From positions 1 through 11,342 of the IMG/VR virus record IMGVR_UViG_2778261353_000007: 11,342 bases of DNA. The stretch is one strand, 5' to 3'. The DNA comes from a virus. Lineage: Duplodnaviria; Heunggongvirae; Uroviricota; Caudoviricetes. This document shows positions 293 to 11,145 of this stretch, one piece after another (within the stretch, counting starts at the first letter, position 1; every line of letters begins with the position of its first letter). Under the pieces are notes generated by a model. That model was not told the DNA's origin, made no database searches, and saw only the letters and a list, made by a program, of their open reading frames with translations. A program made the position numbers and the translations under genes.

Positions 293-387
293 GGAAGATC
301 GTCGTCTCCGGTGAGGCGGCTGGACTTCAAATCCAGTTGGGGCCGCCAGCGGTCCCGGGCAGGTTCGACTCCTGTGATCTTCCGCCA
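293..387 (+). tRNA. selC: tRNA-Sec (selenocysteine, anticodon UCA)
   Basis: 95-nt sequence GGAAGATCGTCGTCTCCGGTGAGGCGGCTGGACTTCAAATCCAGTTGGGGCCGCCAGCGGTCCCGGGCAGGTTCGACTCCTGTGATCTTCCGCCA matches the E. coli selC tRNA as I recall it: long variable arm, anticodon TCA at 327-329, encoded 3' CCA. The minus-strand ORFs overlapping it are spurious. Confidence 0.93.
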
Positions 388-549: not shown

Positions 550-1728
550 ATGGCTCTAACCGATATACAGATCAAACGAGCAAAACCACAAGACAAGCCA
601 TACACATTGAACGATGGACAAGGTCTGTCATTGCTTATCAATCCCGATGGCTCGAAAGGCTGGCGTTTCCGTTTCCGATTTGCAGGAAAAGCGCGGTTAA
701 TGTCATTTGGCAGCTACGATTTAGTAAGCCTCGCAGAAGCACGTGAGAAGCGTGATATCGCCCGTAAGCAGGTTGCTAATGGCATTGACCCGGTAGAGGA
801 ACGCAAAGCTTTAAGACTCGCCCAAAAGCTATCAACAGAAAATTCTTTCGAAGCAATATGTCGAGAATGGCATACCAACAAAGCTGACCGCTGGACTGTG
901 GCCTATCGAGAAGAAATTATTAAGACATTCGAGCAGGATGTCTTCCCGTTCATTGGTAAACGTCCTATCAGTGAAATCAAACCATTAGAACTGCTTGAAG
1001 TATTGCGACGAATAGAGAAACGAGGAGCACTAGAGAAGACCAGAAAAGTGCGCCAAAGATGCGGTGAGGTCTTTCGTTATGCAATCATAACTGGCCGAGC
1101 TGAATACAATCCAGCACCTGATTTAGCTATCGCTCTGGCCGTTCCTAAGCAAAAACACCACCCATTTTTATCTGCCGAAGAGTTGCCTTATTTTATTCAA
1201 GATCTTGAAGCGTATACCGGAAGCATCATCACTAAAAATGCGACAAAGATAGTCATGTTAACTGGCGTAAGAACTCAGGAAATGCGCTTTGCCACGTGGG
1301 ATGAAGTTGACCTTGAGAAAGGAATATGGGAGATTCCAGCTGAAAGGATGAAAATGCGCAGGCCTCATATTGTACCTCTATCTACTCAGGTGATTGCCCT
1401 TTTTAAACAGCTCAAGCCTATTAGCGGCCATTATCCCTACATTTTTATTGGAAGAAATAATCGTAGTAAACCGATCTCTAAAGAAAGTGTATCACAGGTT
1501 ATTGAATTACTAGGCTACAAAGGTCGCGCTACAGGTCACGGATTTAGACATACTATGTCAACCATTTTGCACGAAAAGGGATTTGACAGTGTATGGATTG
1601 AAATGCAATTAGCTCACTTAGATAAAAATACTATTCGAGGTACATATAACCATGCACAATATTTAGAGAAGAGAAAAGATATGATGCAATGGTATGCGGA
1701 CTTTTTATACAAATCATTGGAGCGGTAA
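550..1728 (+). CDS. int: Tyrosine site-specific recombinase, P4-type integrase
   Basis: 392-aa ORF directly downstream of a tRNA gene. N-terminus MALTDIQIKRAKPQDKPYTLNDGQGL is typical of P4-family integrase arm-binding domains. C-terminal catalytic signature is present: Arg in LTGVRTQE, HGFRHT box and Tyr in RGTYNHAQY. No obvious Shine-Dalgarno before the ATG. Confidence 0.9.
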   Translation: MALTDIQIKRAKPQDKPYTLNDGQGLSLLINPDGSKGWRFRFRFAGKARLMSFGSYDLVSLAEAREKRDIARKQVANGIDPVEERKALRLAQKLSTENSFEAICREWHTNKADRWTVAYREEIIKTFEQDVFPFIGKRPISEIKPLELLEVLRRIEKRGALEKTRKVRQRCGEVFRYAIITGRAEYNPAPDLAIALAVPKQKHHPFLSAEELPYFIQDLEAYTGSIITKNATKIVMLTGVRTQEMRFATWDEVDLEKGIWEIPAERMKMRRPHIVPLSTQVIALFKQLKPISGHYPYIFIGRNNRSKPISKESVSQVIELLGYKGRATGHGFRHTMSTILHEKGFDSVWIEMQLAHLDKNTIRGTYNHAQYLEKRKDMMQWYADFLYKSLER

Positions 1729-1737
1729 ACGCTCCAA
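1717..1737. terminator. Perfect 8-bp stem / 5-nt loop hairpin between convergent int and membrane-protein genes (possible bidirectional terminator)
   Basis: TTGGAGCG-GTAAA-CGCTCCAA spans the int stop codon; no clear U-tract on either strand, so terminator function is uncertain. Confidence 0.3.
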
Positions 1738-1744
1738 TACATAA

Positions 1745-2386
1745 TTAATATATGGATGCTATTACCATTAAGACTTTAAAGAAAAACATGACGACAATTA
1801 ACCAGATAATTAAATACCCCCAAATACTACTGATATGATAGTTAATTCTACCTTTTAGCATCCTCCAAAAGCTAAAATTTTCAGGCGTATGGGAAATATA
1901 ATATCTGCTCTTTACTATTTTATGATATTCATAATCAACAGGGCTATGGTTGAAAGTGCATGTTGATTTTATTTTTTCATACTCATCGCGAAGATTATCT
2001 ATATTTTTATAATCTTCTTCAGTCATTTCATTTTTTAAGCTATTTTTGAATAGAGAAAGTTTCCTTTCATACTCATTAAGTAACTCAGCATTTCTAAAGA
2101 GAGCTTCAGATTTAGCTCCTGATGCAACTCCCCACTCAATAAGACTAATTATAATTAATAGCATACTTAAGATAATAGAAAATGCGGTTATTAATATATT
2201 GAGTTTAGGATTTATATCATTAATCCAAAAATATTGCATTAATGATAATATAATACTGGAAAGGCCAATTAAAGCGAGACTAATAGTTGAAAAGATCTCT
2301 CTGACCTTTAATCGACGGGATGAATTATATCTTGCACACGATGTTTCCCATGCAGCTTTACTTAGGCTATCCAAAAAATCTTTCAT
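1745..2386 (-). CDS. Hypothetical membrane protein with three predicted TM segments; candidate effector partner of the adjacent reverse transcriptase
   Basis: ORF track gives 1745..2482 (245 aa). I prefer the internal start MKDFLDSL at 2386 (213 aa) because GGAG lies 6 nt upstream (2393-2396) and the longer N-terminus runs into the GC-rich spacer. Hydrophobic stretches IFSTISLALIGLSSIILSLMQYF, LNILITAFSIILSMLLIIISLI and C-terminal ISSIWGYLIIWLIVVMFFFKVLMVIASIY; charged, probably helical region between TM2 and TM3. AT-rich like the RT gene. No family recognised. Confidence 0.65.
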   Translation of the reverse strand: MKDFLDSLSKAAWETSCARYNSSRRLKVREIFSTISLALIGLSSIILSLMQYFWINDINPKLNILITAFSIILSMLLIIISLIEWGVASGAKSEALFRNAELLNEYERKLSLFKNSLKNEMTEEDYKNIDNLRDEYEKIKSTCTFNHSPVDYEYHKIVKSRYYISHTPENFSFWRMLKGRINYHISSIWGYLIIWLIVVMFFFKVLMVIASIY

Positions 2387-2580
2387 TATAAACTCCATGA
2401 ATAGTATAAAGTGACGCAACGCCGGAGATATCAGTCCAATCCTCTTCACCAGCAGTTTCCCCCGATGAAGGTTTACTACCATTTTAGGTCAGGAGCACTT
2501 CTGCCCATCACGGCATTTCCGCATGGGGTACGGCACCTGCAAGGCAAGTGCCGTCGGCGTTGGTCAAGCTCAATATATCA

Positions 2581-3990
2581 TTATTTAGGATATACTTCAC
2601 CTTCATCTGCATGCATGCTAGCTAGATTTTTAGCTTTATATCTCTCATAACGCTCTTCAACCTGTTCTTTAGTTAACCTCTCACCTTCAGCAATCCTTCC
2701 GCGCCGGTGCAAGAATTCAGTTTTTTGTTTAACAGTTTTAATCTGGTCGTAATCTCGTATATAACCTCTATGTGGGCTATATTTCATTTCATAATAAGCA
2801 CGTGTTACCTTTTTCAATCCTTCAGGTGCACAATTATCAAAATCATCCAAGCGTTTAAACATTTCTCTTATTATAAAATCTATTTTATGCAGAAGAGAGT
2901 GGTCGGTAATATTTGAATAATAAGCCACCCATCCATATCTTTTTTTCTCACTAATAGCCCCTGTTAACTTATCATTTAACTCTTCCAGAAAAACATCTTT
3001 AAGATCATCAACGGTTAAATGTGTATACTTCTTTAAACGTTTATTTTTATTGTGAAGATAGTCACTAAACCTAGATGCGATTGATTTTATAAATGATTCT
3101 ACAGTCGAATCTCGCACTGTTATAACATTTGCATTAAAAACATATCCCAAAAAGCTAAAAGACTCATTAAGAAAACCTAAACGTGTCTTAGATGATGTTG
3201 GCGGATGAGTGTTTAATCCCCTATATTTAAGCCTACGCCGTAGTGAATGATAAGCTGAATTTACCTCGTCATAATTTCCATAAATTAGCACATCATCAAC
3301 ATATCTATAGTAAGCTACATCAAACTTTAGCATTTTATCATCAACACTTTGCAGATAAATTGCAGCTAAAATATTAGATATTGACAACCCTTGAGGAACT
3401 CCCTTTTCATTATCAAAAAAAAACTTCCTCATTTTTTTATTAACACTATCACTTGTTGTTGGTGTTAAAAGAGAACGAACTATGAGGTCCAACGCTCTTT
3501 TACAATGCACTCTTTTTGATAGAATCTTTTTAAGTCGATGTTTGTTTATATTGTCATAGAAACCTTCAATATCACAACTACAAACATAAATATCTTCAGG
3601 GGGCATATCTTTTAAATCATCCGAGATATTTCTAATATAAGTTGAAGCAATACTCTTAGGTACACAATCAGGGAAAATCTCACAAAGAAAAACATTGAGC
3701 TGTTTTAATACAATGCGATCTCTAATTGTTGGTATAGAAATTACCCTAGGACTTTTTCCTCGCCCTTTACTTTTTAATTTTTCTAAGTAAGGAGTAAATC
3801 TAAATGAACCGTCAAGACATTTTTCCGAAACTTTCTTTAATTCCTTTCTGGCTCTACTTGAATATTGCATGCCATTGATTCTGTCAATGCCTTTTGCTGC
3901 CGACTTACTAAATTTATCAGAATACACATCAAATAAAGATTTTGGGGAGAAGAGTTTTTTAAATAACGTTTCTTGTGCTCGTTCATCCAT
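2581..3990 (-). CDS. Reverse transcriptase (RNA-directed DNA polymerase), unclassified, probably defence-associated
   Basis: 469-aa ORF with the RT motif series: AAKGIDRINGMQY (motif 0/1-like), RVISIPTIRDRIVLKQL (motif 2), CDIEGFYDNI (motif A, catalytic Asp), GVPQGLSISNILAAIYL (motif B'), YRYVDDVLIYG (motif C, YxDD), FLGYVF (primer grip). About 180-aa charged C-terminal extension. SD-like AAGGTG 5 nt before the ATG. Very AT-rich relative to the P4 backbone. Confidence 0.9.
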   Translation of the reverse strand: MDERAQETLFKKLFSPKSLFDVYSDKFSKSAAKGIDRINGMQYSSRARKELKKVSEKCLDGSFRFTPYLEKLKSKGRGKSPRVISIPTIRDRIVLKQLNVFLCEIFPDCVPKSIASTYIRNISDDLKDMPPEDIYVCSCDIEGFYDNINKHRLKKILSKRVHCKRALDLIVRSLLTPTTSDSVNKKMRKFFFDNEKGVPQGLSISNILAAIYLQSVDDKMLKFDVAYYRYVDDVLIYGNYDEVNSAYHSLRRRLKYRGLNTHPPTSSKTRLGFLNESFSFLGYVFNANVITVRDSTVESFIKSIASRFSDYLHNKNKRLKKYTHLTVDDLKDVFLEELNDKLTGAISEKKRYGWVAYYSNITDHSLLHKIDFIIREMFKRLDDFDNCAPEGLKKVTRAYYEMKYSPHRGYIRDYDQIKTVKQKTEFLHRRGRIAEGERLTKEQVEERYERYKAKNLASMHADEGEVYPK

Positions 3991-4129
3991 TGCATCACCT
4001 TATATTACGTCACGACTATTCCGTCTGACCACTTAATATCATGAATTCATTGCGTTCTTATAGCAAAATTTAATAAAAACTGCATTAACCTTCACTATTG
4101 ATTGGTCGCATTAAATTCTTATGCGCGCA

Positions 4130-4148
4130 GTGCTTTCCCCGCCTCGCC
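4130..4148 (-). other. cos site: 19-nt P2/P4 cohesive-end sequence
   Basis: Minus strand reads GGCGAGGCGGGGAAAGCAC, which matches the P2/P4 cohesive-end sequence as I recall it. It lies downstream of psu, as in P4, and is flanked by GC-rich hairpins (4147-4167 and 4197-4218). Confidence 0.55.
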
Positions 4149-4250
4149 CGCCCGCTTTGCGGGGCGGTTTTAATGCAGTTGCACTGACACGCTCAGACCG
4201 CGCCGGGAATGGCGCGGTTTGCAGAAAATGAGGCAGGAAAACGCATGCAA

Positions 4251-4312: not shown

Positions 4313-4885
4313 TTACACAGACTGATGTGATGCCAGTTGCGCACTTTTACGCGAAAAAATCATATTCTGCGCAGGAGTGAATTTTTCACGGCTGTCATCC
4401 ACCGAAGCCGCGTCAGGCCTGAATCCGATGGTCGTTAAAATGTCGCTATCCTGTGCGGAATAATTAATTTTTTCCCCCTTCGCAAGCCAGGACAGAAGGG
4501 CTTCACGCAGGGCATCTGTGGCACGCTGTATGGCACAGTTTCGGGCAATGGCCGTCAGCTCACTGTAGCCCATCAGCTCCGGTGCCAGTGCGGCCGCCAG
4601 TGCTGTGCCGTGCTGCTGCATAAAATCATTCAGCCGGTCGCGGATGCTGATGTGCTGAACGGCTTCATGCGAACGAATATAACGACCGGCAGCCTGATTC
4701 ACCTGCCATTTTCTGACTTCGATAATATTGCGTAATTCGTCCAGGCGACTGACGTTTCTGCCTTCCCCGGACAGAAGCCGCAGATATTCCTGTTCGGCCG
4801 CAGCCAGCTCATTTTTGCGTTGCAGCCATGCTGCTTTGTTATTCTGACAGGTGTCAAAGGCCTGCTGTAAGGCTGTGCTTTCCAT
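4313..4885 (-). CDS. psu: Polarity suppression protein Psu (capsid decoration / Rho antagonist)
   Basis: 190-aa ORF, the size I recall for P4 Psu; last gene of a minus-strand sid-delta-psu operon, followed by terminator and cos exactly as in P4. Confidence 0.88.
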   Translation of the reverse strand: MESTALQQAFDTCQNNKAAWLQRKNELAAAEQEYLRLLSGEGRNVSRLDELRNIIEVRKWQVNQAAGRYIRSHEAVQHISIRDRLNDFMQQHGTALAAALAPELMGYSELTAIARNCAIQRATDALREALLSWLAKGEKINYSAQDSDILTTIGFRPDAASVDDSREKFTPAQNMIFSRKSAQLASHQSV

Positions 4886-4958: not shown

Positions 4959-5459
4959 TCATTCCAGACGCAGCGAATATGATTGTGTTTTTAACCGTAC
5001 TGGCGGCAGTTCCTGTTTTTCATGCAGGCGTTCTGCCAGTTCGTCCGGCGTGACCGGGCGGACAATGAAGCGGTTGATGGTCTGAAGCGTTTTAAACACC
5101 AGACCACAGCCCGGATCCGTGCACACATAAAAACGTTCGGTGACTTCCTGAGACAGACGCCGCGATGTTCTTGACAGTGCAAGGCCGTTACATCTCCGAC
5201 AACAATATCCGGTAACAAGCATTCTTTTCGGGCGTTTCATACTGCCGGAGGCAGAAGTCAGTGAATCGCGGTATCTCTGTTTGCCTGAAATGTATTCCAT
5301 TCCTGAATCTTTACTGTCAGAGAAAAAGCTTTCACTCGCTTCAAATGTCGCAGAGCAATAAATATTCCGGCACTGTGCAATCATTATCTTGGTGCCATCG
5401 TCCATGAAATGTGCGCGACGAGTGTGAGCAACATGTCCACACGACGGGCAGTAAATCAT
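4959..5459 (-). CDS. delta: Late gene transcriptional activator Delta (tandem Ogr-type zinc finger)
   Basis: 166-aa ORF with two Cys-rich zinc-finger units (CPSCGH...CRNIYC and CCRRCNG...CTDPGCG), matching a duplicated Ogr-like fold. Start overlaps the sid stop (ATGA), indicating translational coupling. Confidence 0.88.
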   Translation of the reverse strand: MIYCPSCGHVAHTRRAHFMDDGTKIMIAQCRNIYCSATFEASESFFSDSKDSGMEYISGKQRYRDSLTSASGSMKRPKRMLVTGYCCRRCNGLALSRTSRRLSQEVTERFYVCTDPGCGLVFKTLQTINRFIVRPVTPDELAERLHEKQELPPVRLKTQSYSLRLE

Positions 5460-6190
5460 GACAGCAGTCCTCTGGCCTTAAGCTCTGCACCCTGCTGGTC
5501 TATTTTGTCCTGCCACACCTTGCGCTGTGCCGGTGTGCCTGCCACCTCATAATCCATGTGCGGGAGTGTTGCCGCTGACAGTCCGGTCAGCCGGAGAACC
5601 GGCTCGCCGGTGAGGCTGATTTGCATCTGTTTAATTTTCTGTTCCAGCGATGATTTCACCTGCTGCATGACAGCCTTTTCCGGTGCGACGTAGCCCTGAT
5701 GGCCGGTGGTGTTGGCGAGCGGATTTTCCTGTACCAGAATGCTCAGATGCATTGCCCGGACAAGCGCCTCACAGGTTTCATTCAGGGCGTGTTCCAGCTC
5801 ATGCTCTGCATACAGACTCAGAAGGTGATGATGTGCCTTCCGGTAGGCGGTGGCCGTGCTGTCACACGCCCCTTTCAGGCGTTCGCGTTCAAAATTCAGC
5901 ACCACGGCCAGATTGTCATATTCCTGTACCAGCTCCCGGCGTGCCACGCGCTCAATGTGGCGCTGTTTCAGCTCGTCGCTCAGGACACCACCGGCTGCAC
6001 GAAAGGCCGTGCGCCAGTCGTCAGCGTCGTTTCCGTCGGCCTGCGCCAGCGCATTTTTTTCCTGCTCTGCCCGTTCAATGGCCGTGACGGTCTCATCCAT
6101 CAGACGGGCGTTCTCAAGATGGGCGGCTCTGGCCTTTTCCAGTTGTGCCAGCGCGGATTGCAGATATTCAGGGATGGTGTTGTCAGACAT
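5456..6190 (-). CDS. sid: Capsid size determination protein Sid (external scaffold)
   Basis: 244-aa ORF, the size I recall for P4 Sid; first gene of the late operon; GAGGAG Shine-Dalgarno upstream of the ATG; helical, Ala/Glu/Leu-rich composition. Confidence 0.9.
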   Translation of the reverse strand: MSDNTIPEYLQSALAQLEKARAAHLENARLMDETVTAIERAEQEKNALAQADGNDADDWRTAFRAAGGVLSDELKQRHIERVARRELVQEYDNLAVVLNFERERLKGACDSTATAYRKAHHHLLSLYAEHELEHALNETCEALVRAMHLSILVQENPLANTTGHQGYVAPEKAVMQQVKSSLEQKIKQMQISLTGEPVLRLTGLSAATLPHMDYEVAGTPAQRKVWQDKIDQQGAELKARGLLS

Positions 6191-6279: not shown

Positions 6280-6358
6280 GGAGACTCATCCTCACACCGG
6301 CAAGCCAGGAAAAGGTCGCAGGAAAAACCGGCTTACTGTTTGTTTTTTTATATTTTAC

Positions 6359-6462: not shown

Positions 6463-6566
6463 CGTTGATGGGCTTTTTGTGCTGTTTATTACTGTTTGTT
6501 TTTATTAATTCGCCGGGAATGAATAAGAAAAAACGATTTGTATTTCACTATAAAAATTACGAATTG

Positions 6567-6741: not shown

Positions 6742-7008
6742 ATGCAAGCTGTTTTTTCTTCCCCGTCTCCCGCCCCTGTGACGCCACTGATGCCGCTGCC
6801 GGACATCACGCAGGAGCGTTTTTTACGTCTGCCGGAAGTGATGCACCTGTGCGGCCTGTCACGCTCGACCATCTATGAACTCATCCGTAAGGGGGAATTT
6901 CCGCCGCAGGTGAGTCTTGGCGGTAAAAATGTGGCCTGGCTGCACTCTGAAGTCACCGCATGGATGGCCGGCCGCATTGCCGGACGCAAACGGGGGTATG
7001 ACGCATGA
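6742..7008 (+). CDS. vis: AlpA/Vis-family small DNA-binding regulator (excisionase-like)
   Basis: 88-aa ORF with the AlpA-type helix-turn-helix core [27 protein letters not shown] and a conserved Trp-containing tail; GAGGT Shine-Dalgarno 7 nt upstream. Same size and position as P4 orf88/vis as I recall. Confidence 0.75.
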
Positions 7009-7604
7009 TGATGCCCGCTCTGCAAAAAGTCCCTTTTTCTGGCTTGCCTTTTTCCGGCATTTGCGGATATAGTTTTTCCGCTGTCGCAAAATCGGCAGCC
7101 GGGCGTGGAAACCCGAGCAATCTAACGGCGACATATGACGCGCCATGCGTCTTTTTTTGTGTCGCAATCAACGCCACAGAGCGCCAGATTATGGTGTGGT
7201 GTGTGGTCAGTCGAGCAGATGGCACTCCGTGCATCCTGCCCGCGTCCGCTCATTATGCCGCAGAGTCAATGGTAGCTCAGGCGGGGCAGCCTCCGGGCTG
7301 GCCGGTATCCGTTAGAGCCGGTATTTCCACCCCCGTCTGGGCTATCGCCATCGAGCGTGGAAACTCCGGCGATAGCGTAACCTGCTATCTAACGGAGGCT
7401 GCCATCATGGCTACAACCCTTACCCCTTCACACCCTGAATTTGTCTTTGTGTTTGCGGCTGTCCGTCGCGCAGACCGTCATCCCCGTATCTGCATGCTTC
7501 GCACCGTCGCCGGTGATGAACGCAGTGCCCGCCGTTCCCTTGTCCGTGACTATGTGCTCTCCCTTGCTGCCCGTCTGCCGGTGGTGGAGGTGTCCCGTGC
7601 GTAA
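7005..7604 (+). CDS. Questionable 199-codon ORF overlapping the early promoter and immunity RNA region
   Basis: ATG overlaps the vis stop (ATGA), but the frame runs straight through seqA, the candidate CI RNA and seqC, and has Ala/Arg/Pro-rich low-complexity composition. Possibly only an N-terminal kil-like portion is real, or none of it. Confidence 0.2.
7044..7073 (+). promoter_or_regulatory. Candidate early promoter (PLE-like): TTGCCT, 18-bp spacer, TATAGT
   Basis: -35-like hexamer at 7044-7049 and -10-like hexamer at 7068-7073, about 30 bp upstream of seqA. Match by eye only. Confidence 0.3.
7103..7129 (+). promoter_or_regulatory. seqA-like target of the immunity RNA
   Basis: GCGTGGAAACCCGAGCAATCTAACGGC; its ends (GTGGAAA ... 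ATCTAACGG) are complementary to CCGTTAGA ... TTTCCAC at 7309-7330. A near-repeat lies at 7355-7397. Confidence 0.4.
7271..7346 (+). ncRNA. Candidate CI-like immunity RNA containing seqB
   Basis: Contains seqB-like CCGTTAGAGCCGGTATTTCCAC (7309-7330), complementary to seqA and seqC. GGTAGC (7271-7276) can pair with GCTATC (7341-7346) as a closing helix, with internal hairpin CAGCC-TCCG-GGCTG. Boundaries approximate. Confidence 0.35.
7355..7397 (+). promoter_or_regulatory. seqC-like second target of the immunity RNA
   Basis: GCGTGGAAACTCCGGCGATAGCGTAACCTGCTATCTAACGGAG repeats the seqA end motifs (GTGGAAAC ... ATCTAACGG) downstream of seqB. Confidence 0.4.
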
Positions 7605-8802: not shown

Positions 8803-11145
8803 ATGAAAATGAACGTAACCGCCACCGTCAGCCATGCGCTCGGCCACTGGCCGCGTATTCTCCCGGCGCTGGGGATTCAGGTGCTGAAAAACCGTCATCA
8901 GCCCTGTCCGGTCTGTGGCGGGAGTGACCGCTTCCGTTTTGATGACAGGGAGGGGCGCGGCACCTGGTACTGCAATCAGTGTGGTGCCGGTGACGGCCTG
9001 AAACTGGTTGAAAAGGTGTTTGGTGTTTCCCCGTCCGATGCGGCCGCAAAGGTGGCTGCCGTGACCGGCAGCCTGCCCCCGGCTGACCCGGCAGTGACGG
9101 CTGCCGCCGGTGCTGAAACAGACGCTGCCCGGAAGAACGCAGCCGCACTGGCACAAACCCTGATGGCGAAAACCCGTCCCGGAACCGGTAACGCCTACCT
9201 GACCCGCAAGGGCTTTCCCGACCGGGAATGCCGGATGCTGACCGGCACACACAGAGCCGGTGGCGTGAGCTGGCGCGCCGGTGACCTTGTGGTGCCACTG
9301 TATGACGACAGCGGCGAACTGGTTAACCTTCAGTTAATCAGTGCTGACGGCCGTAAGCGCACCCTGAAAGGCGGACAGGTCAGGGGCACCTGTCACACCC
9401 TTGAAGGACAGAATCAGGCCGGAAAACGTCTGTGGATAGCGGAGGGATACGCGACCGCACTTACCGTGCATCACCTGACCGGTGAAACGGTGATGGTGGC
9501 GCTTTCTTCCGTGAACCTCCTTTCTCTGGCCAGCCTTGCCCGGCAGAAGCATCCGGCCTGTCAGATTGTCCTTGCCGCAGACCGTGACCTCAGCGGTGAC
9601 GGCCAGAAAAAAGCCGCCGCAGCCGCAGATGCGTGTGAAGGTGTTGTTGCCCTGCCGCCGGTCTTCGGTGACTGGAATGATGCCTTCACGCAGTACGGCG
9701 GGGAAGCCACCCGTAAGGCCATTTATGATGCCATCCGGCCACCGACTGAAAGCCCGTTCGACACCATGAGCGAAGCGGAGTTTTCCGCCATGAGTACCAG
9801 CGAAAAGGCCATGCGTATCTATGAGCATTACGGCGAGGCGCTCGCGGTCGATGCCAACGGCCAGCTTCTGTCCCGCTATGAAAATGGTGTCTGGAAGGTG
9901 CTGCCGCCACAGGACTTTGCCCGGGATGTGGCCGGGCTGTTTCAGCGTCTGCGCGCGCCGTTCTCCTCCGGGAAGGTGGCCTCCGTGGTGGACACCCTGA
10001 AGCTGATTATTCCGCAGCAGGAAGCCCCCTCCCGCCGCCTGATTGGCTTTCGTAACGGCGTGCTCGACACGCAGAACGGCACGTTCCACCCGCACAGTCC
10101 GTCACACTGGATGCGCACCCTGTGCGATGTGGATTTCACCCCGCCGGTGGAAGGGGAAACGCTGGAAAACCACGCCCCCGCGTTCTGGCGCTGGCTTGAC
10201 CGTGCCGCCGGTGGCCGTGCGGAAAAACGCGACGTGATTCTGGCCGCACTGTTTATGGTGCTGGCAAACCGCTACGACTGGCAGCTCTTTCTGGAGGTGA
10301 CCGGTCCCGGCGGCAGCGGCAAAAGTATCATGGCCGAAATCGCCACCCTGCTGGCCGGGGAGGATAACGCCACGTCGGCCACCATCGAGACGCTGGAATC
10401 CCCGCGTGAACGTGCCGCGTTAACTGGCTTCTCACTGATACGCCTGCCGGACCAGGAAAAATGGAGCGGCGACGGTGCCGGACTCAAGGCCATCACTGGC
10501 GGCGATGCGGTGTCCGTGGACCCGAAATACCGGGATGCGTACTCCACGCATATCCCGGCGGTGATTCTGGCCGTGAACAATAACCCGATGCGCTTCACCG
10601 ACCGCAGCGGCGGCGTGTCACGCCGGCGGGTGATTATTCACTTCCCGGAACAGATAGCCCCGCAGGAGCGCGACCCGCAGCTTAAGGACAAAATCACCCG
10701 CGAGCTGGCGGTCATTGTGCGTCACCTGATGCAGAAGTTCAGCGACCCGATGCTCGCCCGGTCACTGCTTCAGTCCCAGCAGAACTCAGACGAGGCACTG
10801 AACATCAAACGGGATGCCGACCCGACGTTTGATTTTATCGGCTATCTGGAAACCCTGCCGCAGACCAGCGGCATGTATATGGGGAACGCCAGTATCATCC
10901 CGCGTAATTACCGTAAATACCTCTATCACGCCTATCTGGCCTACATGGAGGCAAACGGCTACCGGAATGTACTCAGTCTGAAAATGTTCGGGCTGGGGCT
11001 GCCGGTGATGCTGAAGGAATACGGACTGAATTACGAGAAGCGCCATACCAAACAGGGGATACAGACCAACCTGACGCTGAAAGAGGAAAGCTACGGCGAC
11101 TGGCTGCCAAAATGTGACGACCCTGCGACAACCCGACCCTCATGA
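8803..11145 (+). CDS. alpha: Replication protein alpha: primase (zinc finger + TOPRIM) fused to helicase, with C-terminal origin-binding region
   Basis: 780-aa ORF. N-terminal zinc motif CPVCGGSDRFRFDD...YCNQCG; TOPRIM-like region around WIAEGYATALTV and AADRDLSGDGQKKA; Walker A GPGGSGKS. AGGAG Shine-Dalgarno upstream. Size and architecture match P4 alpha. Confidence 0.92.
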   Translation: MKMNVTATVSHALGHWPRILPALGIQVLKNRHQPCPVCGGSDRFRFDDREGRGTWYCNQCGAGDGLKLVEKVFGVSPSDAAAKVAAVTGSLPPADPAVTAAAGAETDAARKNAAALAQTLMAKTRPGTGNAYLTRKGFPDRECRMLTGTHRAGGVSWRAGDLVVPLYDDSGELVNLQLISADGRKRTLKGGQVRGTCHTLEGQNQAGKRLWIAEGYATALTVHHLTGETVMVALSSVNLLSLASLARQKHPACQIVLAADRDLSGDGQKKAAAAADACEGVVALPPVFGDWNDAFTQYGGEATRKAIYDAIRPPTESPFDTMSEAEFSAMSTSEKAMRIYEHYGEALAVDANGQLLSRYENGVWKVLPPQDFARDVAGLFQRLRAPFSSGKVASVVDTLKLIIPQQEAPSRRLIGFRNGVLDTQNGTFHPHSPSHWMRTLCDVDFTPPVEGETLENHAPAFWRWLDRAAGGRAEKRDVILAALFMVLANRYDWQLFLEVTGPGGSGKSIMAEIATLLAGEDNATSATIETLESPRERAALTGFSLIRLPDQEKWSGDGAGLKAITGGDAVSVDPKYRDAYSTHIPAVILAVNNNPMRFTDRSGGVSRRRVIIHFPEQIAPQERDPQLKDKITRELAVIVRHLMQKFSDPMLARSLLQSQQNSDEALNIKRDADPTFDFIGYLETLPQTSGMYMGNASIIPRNYRKYLYHAYLAYMEANGYRNVLSLKMFGLGLPVMLKEYGLNYEKRHTKQGIQTNLTLKEESYGDWLPKCDDPATTRPS

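Follow-up and report, generated by a model that had tools for sequence, protein, structure and literature searches.

A probable complete DRT10 anti-phage system, with an RNA between its two genes, in the cos-int slot of a P4-like satellite

The DNA analysed here, an 11,342-nt stretch from a caudoviral record (IMG/VR IMGVR_UViG_2778261353_000007; hereafter the window), is a P4-like satellite whose slot between cos and the integrase gene int holds two minus-strand open reading frames (ORFs), encoding a reverse transcriptase (RT) and a small membrane protein, in place of gop-beta-cII. Very probably, this locus is a complete DRT10 anti-phage system of the UG17-B ('Eco2-like') subtype, carried as cargo of the psu/cos-int hotspot, with proteins identical to a pair described from Escherichia coli H120. 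The combination of a UG17 RT with a SLATT protein has been named DRT10, a tripartite system of non-coding RNA (ncRNA), SLATT and RT, in two mechanistic preprints (Tang et al., 2025, 10.1101/2025.10.16.682844; Sanchez-Nieto et al., 2026, 10.64898/2026.04.29.721553). Both the system and its family are already published, as are the satellite context and much of the mechanism. A first-pass annotation of the window had recognised a phage-defence module that pairs an RT with a membrane effector, as borne out below, and had taken its RT for an undescribed one that could be placed in no named family, a view that the profile matches overturn.

A UG17 reverse transcriptase and a SLATT protein identical to the H120 pair

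The RT is matched almost end to end by the PADLOC profile RT_UG17 (PDLC03754; 4.4e-140, 465 bits), with residues 6-466 aligned to positions 3-428 of the 429 in the profile. The second-best PADLOC RT family reaches 2.7e-35, and Drt9 and Drt2 about 1e-18. Pfam recognises RVT_1 (1.6e-20), and no NCBIfam model passes its own cutoff for this protein, the retron, Drt2/3/4 and group II intron models scoring far below theirs. The catalytic YVDD motif (residues 230-233) is intact, and each of Y230, V231, D232 and D233 is invariant in 32 homologues; its change to YVAA destroys defence in the DRT10 homologues tested (Tang et al., 2025). The RT groups with class 2 of the UG/Abi RTs (Mestre et al., 2022). 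Profile searches of the kind suggested by the first-pass annotation, made here with PADLOC, Pfam and NCBIfam, identify the RT as UG17 and its partner as SLATT_5, and not as retron or group II proteins.

Structure prediction, also suggested there, gave an AlphaFold model of the RT with a predicted local distance difference test score of 88 and low confidence at tail residues 462-466; its nearest folds in the PDB are known ones, namely group II intron-type RTs (G2L4 and GsI-IIC) and DRT9. A sequence search of a PDB copy detected neither a solved DRT10 RT nor a solved SLATT relative. The gene could in principle be a group II intron-type maturase or the remnant of a mobile retroelement rather than a defence gene, as the closest solved folds, the best NCBIfam match (group_II_RT_mat, 137 bits) and the name 'maturase' used by some sources would have it. 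However, 137 bits is far under the TIGR04416 cutoff of 300, the UG17 profile is a far better fit, the window shows no match to a group II intron RNA family, and the homologous RTs always have an ncRNA and a SLATT gene after them. We therefore regard an intron or retroelement origin as extremely improbable.

The membrane protein belongs to the SLATT_5 family (Pfam PF18160, 6e-31; NCBIfam NF033631, 4.6e-38; PADLOC RTasSLATT, 1e-35) and has three hydrophobic segments, at residues ~30-55, 60-91 and 183-213 of its 213, in agreement with the three membrane segments and the shared strand noted in the first-pass annotation. The ORF drawn there from ATG 2482 is over-extended. The true start is ATG 2386, because RefSeq annotates 213 aa, a GGAG Shine-Dalgarno sequence at 2396..2393 precedes this ATG, the SLATT_5 profile begins some 33-40 residues into the long ORF, and alignments of homologues begin at the methionine encoded at 2386. 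The spacer between the RT and SLATT genes is therefore 194 nt and not ~98 nt. The published spacer of this arrangement is 'approximately 200 bp' (Tang et al., 2025), and in at least 20 homologous loci the RT is followed by the ncRNA and then by SLATT, at a spacing of 200-245 nt. One member of the SLATT cluster, WP_249926678.1, is 191 aa long.

On translation, the RT shows zero differences from annotated WP_000344414.1 (E. coli 51489 and VG12A2), and the SLATT protein shows zero differences from annotated WP_001352776.1 (E. coli 51489). These accessions are H120_04184 and H120_04183, respectively, of Rousset et al. (10.1101/2020.05.25.114553; a 2020 preprint, later cited as 2021), so that the window pair is 100% identical to a published one. 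In uropathogenic H120 the pair renders sbcB essential; in K-12 the pair proves toxic once sbcB is repressed, and insertion sequence (IS) insertions in the RT gene suppress the essentiality of sbcB (10.1101/2020.05.25.114553). Rousset et al. (2022, PMC9122126) begin their article with the H120 system; its location between psu and int of a P4-like satellite was what led them to the P4 defence hotspot. The locus has since been classed as UG17 (Mestre et al., 2022) and as UG17-B (Sanchez-Nieto et al., 2026), and it is UG17_locus_1580 in Table S1 of Tang et al. (2025). The window shares with it the RT of 469 aa, the SLATT of 213 aa and the psu/cos-int position, with no difference detectable at the protein level.

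A previously undescribed family of RT-based defence might be suspected from the generic RefSeq names ('reverse transcriptase domain-containing protein', 'maturase'), from a Pfam result limited to RVT_1 and from NCBIfam scores below cutoff. It is refuted by the identity of the proteins with WP_000344414.1 and WP_001352776.1, and the full-length UG17 match, the two DRT10 preprints and the listing of the locus in Table S1 of Tang et al. (2025) likewise stand against it; we assign it next to no probability.

Among 5,426 complete E. coli genomes, 5 carry the region with an identity of at least 99.8%, and a blastn search of distant sensitivity found no other relatives of the RT plus ncRNA in these genomes. 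Since this search shows no other E. coli relative, the Eco2 DRT10 of Tang et al. (2025), which comes from E. coli, has an Eco2-like ncRNA and neighbours a tyrosine recombinase, may well be the window locus. Natural variants comprise A31T in the RT of STEC299 (L060) and Y106D in the SLATT of VG12A2 (L061); the ncRNA is invariant among them, and the single base change of STEC299 lies outside it, adjoining the SLATT start. According to Table S1 of Tang et al. (2025), the RT is frameshifted or truncated in E. coli R136-3, MOD1-EC5642 and NZ_MIXK01000015 (UG17_locus_1340, 1346 and 1542), and SLATT is intact in UG17_locus_1340 and 1542, the two for which a neighbouring gene is recorded. These broken copies echo the IS suppressors of H120 and suggest recurrent selection against RT activity. 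The same table includes a homologue from Klebsiella pneumoniae Kpn1241 (NZ_CP153710.1, ~90 kb; UG17_locus_1579) whose RT is 89% identical and is accompanied by a matching SLATT, and an 89%-identical cluster (P0002), possibly of the same lineage, has 481 member sequences. The H120-type lineage may be commoner outside E. coli.

The spacer RNA, its predicted template and the priming residue

The first-pass annotation had seen no room for an RNA component upstream of the RT gene; the RNA is found between the two genes instead. We built a covariance model (R1) from the five Eco2-like ncRNAs in Table S2 of Tang et al. (2025), excluding the window sequence. RNAalifold drew a hairpin inside the template loop of these five seeds, and the loop was kept unpaired, following the published model. 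Within the spacer, R1 matches 2409..2573 (minus strand) end to end with 60.2-60.3 bits (E ~1e-14 to 1e-15, depending on the search), and this is its only strong match in the window, the second hit with filters off scoring 10 bits. The spacer folds with a minimum free energy (MFE) of -70.6 kcal/mol, a z-score of -5.4 against shuffled sequence. R1 also matches 21 further homologous loci, mostly no more than ~40 nt past the RT stop codon (~150 nt in L019), and SLATT begins 15-25 nt after the ncRNA in at least 20 loci (tblastn).

When the 22 homologues are aligned, pairing holds in 91% of cells, and double changes are seen at 39 of the 47 pairs; the slid controls reach 42-48% and 16-24 pairs. These counts are somewhat inflated, because the alignment was fitted to R1. 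All 14 pairs of helix 1, the basal stem, covary. The stem-loop directly 5' of the template loop corresponds to helix 7 of R1, with double changes in 8 of 11 pairs; the equivalent stem-loop upstream of the template is indispensable in Eco3 DRT10 (Tang et al., 2025). The window locus shares with the Eco2-like/UG17-B class the gene order of RT then SLATT, the spacer of ~200 nt with its Eco2-like ncRNA upstream of SLATT, the motifs GAAGUGCUCC and AACCUUC, the loop GGAU..GA.CUGAU and an RT tail with an invariant tyrosine. It differs in that its ncRNA is shortened: the small hairpin region that separates the GAAGUGC motif from the pre-template stem-loop is absent and the second hairpin is extended, a trimmed form found elsewhere only in a Serratia locus (L024). 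Its R1 score is the second-lowest of the 22 (60 versus 100-170 bits).

At the window locus the ncRNA probably spans ~2566..2410. Manual reading of the sequence revealed a candidate extended -10 element, TGATATATT, from which transcription would begin at ~2563-2566, the bottom of the basal stem. A consensus promoter scan gave fewer matches than shuffled sequence and none upstream of the ncRNA; the scanner passed over TGATATATT because the -35 is weak. Rfam has no family for the spacer RNA at gathering or permissive thresholds, and DRT10 ncRNAs are uncurated in Rfam. R1 found no match in six UG17-A loci (L028, L031, L033, L036, L040 and L052). Four further loci, from Sideroxydans, Nitrotoga and cyanobacteria (L020, L021, L023 and L025), have UG17-B-like RTs with 42-46% identity and a SLATT spacing of 205-250 nt; R1 has no match there either, and their spacers probably hold a further, more divergent class of ncRNA.

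Superficially, the arrangement of RT, ncRNA and effector resembles a retron, in which the RT would make multicopy single-stranded DNA from an msr-msd RNA and SLATT would be the effector; 'putative retron system' is indeed the wording of Rousset et al. (10.1101/2020.05.25.114553). The retron RT models, however, reach 35 and 19 bits where their cutoffs are 235 and 600, the Rfam retron msr families gave no match at gathering or permissive thresholds, the ncRNA matches the Eco2-like DRT10 model, and the RT falls in UG/Abi class 2 (Mestre et al., 2022). Moreover, DRT10 cDNA is protein-primed and does not start from the 2'-OH of an msr (Tang et al., 2025). The first-pass annotation had also argued against a retron, and we see scarcely any prospect that the locus is one. 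A diversity-generating retroelement was considered as well and rejected: a search for direct repeats of at least 16 nt involving 1700..4130 turned up a single 73% match at chance level and nothing else.

In homologous DRT10 systems, a structured ncRNA whose gene lies just upstream of SLATT is bound by the RT, which starts synthesis from a hydroxyl-bearing residue of its C-terminal tail and copies a short A-B template over and over. The template loop follows a stable stem-loop, and each round ends with the nascent cDNA annealing again, now to the downstream A', as in telomerase. The product is a protein-primed, tandem-repeat single-stranded DNA (ssDNA) copied from an A-B-A' template (Tang et al., 2025; Sanchez-Nieto et al., 2026), which was shown in nine tested homologues (Tang et al., 2025) and in UG17-A. 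Host exonuclease I (SbcB) limits this cDNA.

By analogy, we predict the template GAUUGGACU (GAU-UGGACU-GAU) within the loop of the window ncRNA, and a cDNA (AGTCCAATC)n with a 9-nt unit. Nineteen of the 22 homologues have GAU-N6-7-GAU in the same register; L007 has UAA...UAA at this place and L014 keeps GA...GA. Conservation of A and A' in register with a variable B is the pattern expected if A and A' are constrained, as in the published A-B-A' rule (Tang et al., 2025). The priming residue is a C-terminal tyrosine in Eco1 DRT10 and a C-terminal serine in Eco3 (Tang et al., 2025). In the window RT, Tyr467 is invariant among the 32 homologues, whereas Ser458 varies (S/N/R/A/E/T/Q), and tyrosine priming is therefore expected, as in Eco1. 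We hypothesize that the RT binds the spacer ncRNA (~2566..2410), would prime cDNA synthesis from Tyr467 and would copy GAUUGGACU, with GAU as A and A', into (AGTCCAATC)n; the level or state of this cDNA may then gate a SLATT pore and lead to abortive infection.

Defence, addiction and comparison with related systems

Phage protection has been reported for three E. coli homologues (Eco1-3) and for the UG17-A model from Escherichia sp. E3659, and it depends on the RT, SLATT and the ncRNA, all of which are required together (Tang et al., 2025; Sanchez-Nieto et al., 2026). Several points weigh against extending this to the window locus in the form proposed, in addition to the inflated pairing counts. 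The available published data for this exact locus show sbcB-dependent toxicity and not phage protection. The two DRT10 preprints disagree on whether the cDNA rises or falls on infection. The entry 'ncRNA associated' is FALSE for the H120 row in Table S1 of Tang et al. (2025); the flag is not decisive, because it is also FALSE for locus_1428, whose ncRNA appears in Table S2, and we dropped it as a sign that the H120 ncRNA was unreported. Within the template loop, the repeats GGA-UU-GGA (5 nt) and GA-CU-GA (4 nt) compete with the predicted one, and the former would yield an AATCC unit. Finally, A and A' are 2 nt long in Eco2 according to Tang et al. (2025), versus the 3 nt predicted here; either Eco2 is another locus or the predicted register is off by one.

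An alternative that need not exclude DRT10 is an addiction module, akin to a toxin-antitoxin (TA) pair, that stabilises the satellite, with an SbcB-sensitive cDNA restraining or activating a toxic SLATT. The only published phenotype of the exact pair is the sbcB-dependent toxicity with its suppressors in the RT (10.1101/2020.05.25.114553), several E. coli isolates carry a truncated RT beside an intact SLATT (Tang et al., 2025, Table S1), and canonical P4 has the TA-like gop/beta pair at the same site (PMC9122126). On the other hand, the tested E. coli homologues and UG17-A protect against phages in a manner that depends on all three components, and the P4 hotspot is enriched for defence systems (PMC9122126). 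We judge an addiction role improbable, if less so than a retron or an intron, and retain a DRT10 defence system as the best explanation.

Among related systems, Eco3 DRT10 (OKX54664) and UG17-A E3659 likewise combine ncRNA, SLATT and RT, make tandem repeats from an A-B-A' template and prime from a C-terminal RT residue. They differ from the window locus in the class of their ncRNA and in an RT identity of only ~30-34%, and the primer of Eco3 is Ser456, in contrast to the candidate invariant tyrosine here. The class 2 UG/Abi RTs DRT9 (UG28) and DRT2 (UG2) also make repetitive cDNA templated by an ncRNA, and DRT9 is protein-primed and among the best structural matches to the window RT. However, the DRT9 product is poly-dA copied from a U-tract, that of DRT2 is a gene-encoding concatemer formed by rolling-circle synthesis, and neither system has an obligate SLATT partner. 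Telomerase (TERT and TER) resembles DRT10 in its repeat-addition processivity, its template flanked by a realignment sequence and its 5' stem boundary (Tang et al., 2025), but DRT10 is primed by protein and not by chromosome ends, and its product is free ssDNA for immunity. A relationship between the two is a published hypothesis (Tang et al., 2025).

Because the ncRNA ends only ~20 nt before the SLATT start in every homologue, the RNA could also be the 5' leader of SLATT. We speculate that enterobacterial UG17-B systems of the H120 type may differ from Eco3 and E3659 in their trimmed ncRNA, Tyr467 primer and 9-nt (AGTCCAATC)n product, and that RT binding or cDNA synthesis may control SLATT translation in cis; we hold this combination to be rather unlikely. 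If true, neither these differences nor a cis-acting leader would amount to a new kind of system.

Satellite context and implications

The satellite is integrated next to tRNA-Sec (selC; 293..383, plus strand; Rfam, 83.8 bits), directly upstream of int. The matches to int, Psu, Ogr/Delta, AlpA/Vis, alpha, the C4 RNA and cos (Table 1) uphold the P4-like context given by the first-pass annotation, including a cos-int slot without gop, beta and cII. The cos boundary was located with the 19-nt P2/P4 cos core as query, for which 0 exact matches are expected from shuffled sequence. The G+C content of the cos-int cargo is 28-32%, as opposed to 50-63% in the backbone. In P4-like satellites, the hotspot cargo adjoins cos (Rousset, 2022, PMC9122126). 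A 2026 preprint on the evolution of the P2/P4 hotspot mentions neither DRT nor SLATT. No second attachment site copy of the tRNA-Sec 3' end (attR) was found within the 11,342-nt window, and the right end of the satellite therefore lies beyond 11342. The hairpin between the convergent SLATT and int genes is likely a bidirectional terminator.

Table 1. Features of the window, in order of position
Feature	Position	Strand	Basis or remark
P4-type integrase	550..1728	+	Pfam Arm-DNA-bind_3, Phage_int_M, Phage_integrase; other boundary of the hotspot
Terminator-like hairpin	1715..1739	-	Consensus match; ten-pair stem with T-rich tails, after the SLATT stop, shared with convergent int
SLATT_5 membrane effector, 213 aa	1745..2386	-	Identical to WP_001352776.1 (H120_04183)
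DRT10 ncRNA, Eco2-like class	2409..2573	-	R1 match in the RT-SLATT spacer
ncRNA basal stem, 3' strand (CGGCGUUGCGUCA)	2412..2424	-	MFE and centroid structures, R1 match
Template loop AGGAUUGGACUGAUAUCUC	2425..2443	-	Between stem-loop 2470..2444 and the 3' strand of the basal stem
A' (GAU)	2432..2430	-	Prediction
B (UGGACU)	2438..2433	-	Prediction
A (GAU)	2441..2439	-	Prediction
Stable stem-loop directly 5' of the template loop	2444..2470	-	At least 9 pairs in MFE and centroid structures; presumed template boundary
ncRNA basal stem, 5' strand (UGACCAACGCCG)	2555..2566	-	Pairs with 2412..2424 in MFE and centroid structures
Candidate extended -10 element for the ncRNA	2572..2580	-	Manual sequence reading
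DRT10 RT (UG17, subtype B / Eco2-like), 469 aa	2581..3990	-	PADLOC UG17 match; equals WP_000344414.1
Tyr467, candidate protein-priming residue	2590..2592	-	Tail L..MhADEG.vY
Catalytic YVDD	3292..3303	-	Residues 230-233
P2/P4 cos core	4130..4148	-	Exact 19-mer match; upstream boundary of the hotspot
Psu	4313..4885		Domain match
Ogr/Delta	4959..5459		Domain match
ORF in sid position	5456..6190
AlpA/Vis	6742..7008		Domain match
C4/CI immunity RNA	7265..7352	+	Rfam, 76.2 bits
Alpha primase-helicase	8803..11145		Domain match

Other features of the backbone were noted in passing. A terminator-like GC-rich hairpin (CCGCCCGCTTTGCGGGGCGG, then TTTT) abuts the cos core at 4148..4167 (plus strand). A 22-nt direct repeat (TTACTGTTTGTTTTT...), with copies at 6333..6354 and 6489..6510, 156 nt apart, lies in the AT-rich sid-vis intergenic region and may be a regulatory site in the late/early promoter area of P4. 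An isrK RNA (7080..7157, plus strand; Rfam, 72.5 bits) lies ~100 nt upstream of the C4/CI immunity RNA, and both fall within an ORF of the Pfam Ash family (7005..7604), so that two structured RNAs overlap a called protein.

For the annotation of this published system, our analysis places an ncRNA that is absent from RefSeq and Rfam and corrects the start of SLATT; for the H120-type clade, it predicts a template, a repeat unit and a tyrosine as the priming residue. A generic 'RT domain' annotation hides membership in the UG/DRT families, and RNA components that lie between genes are easily overlooked.

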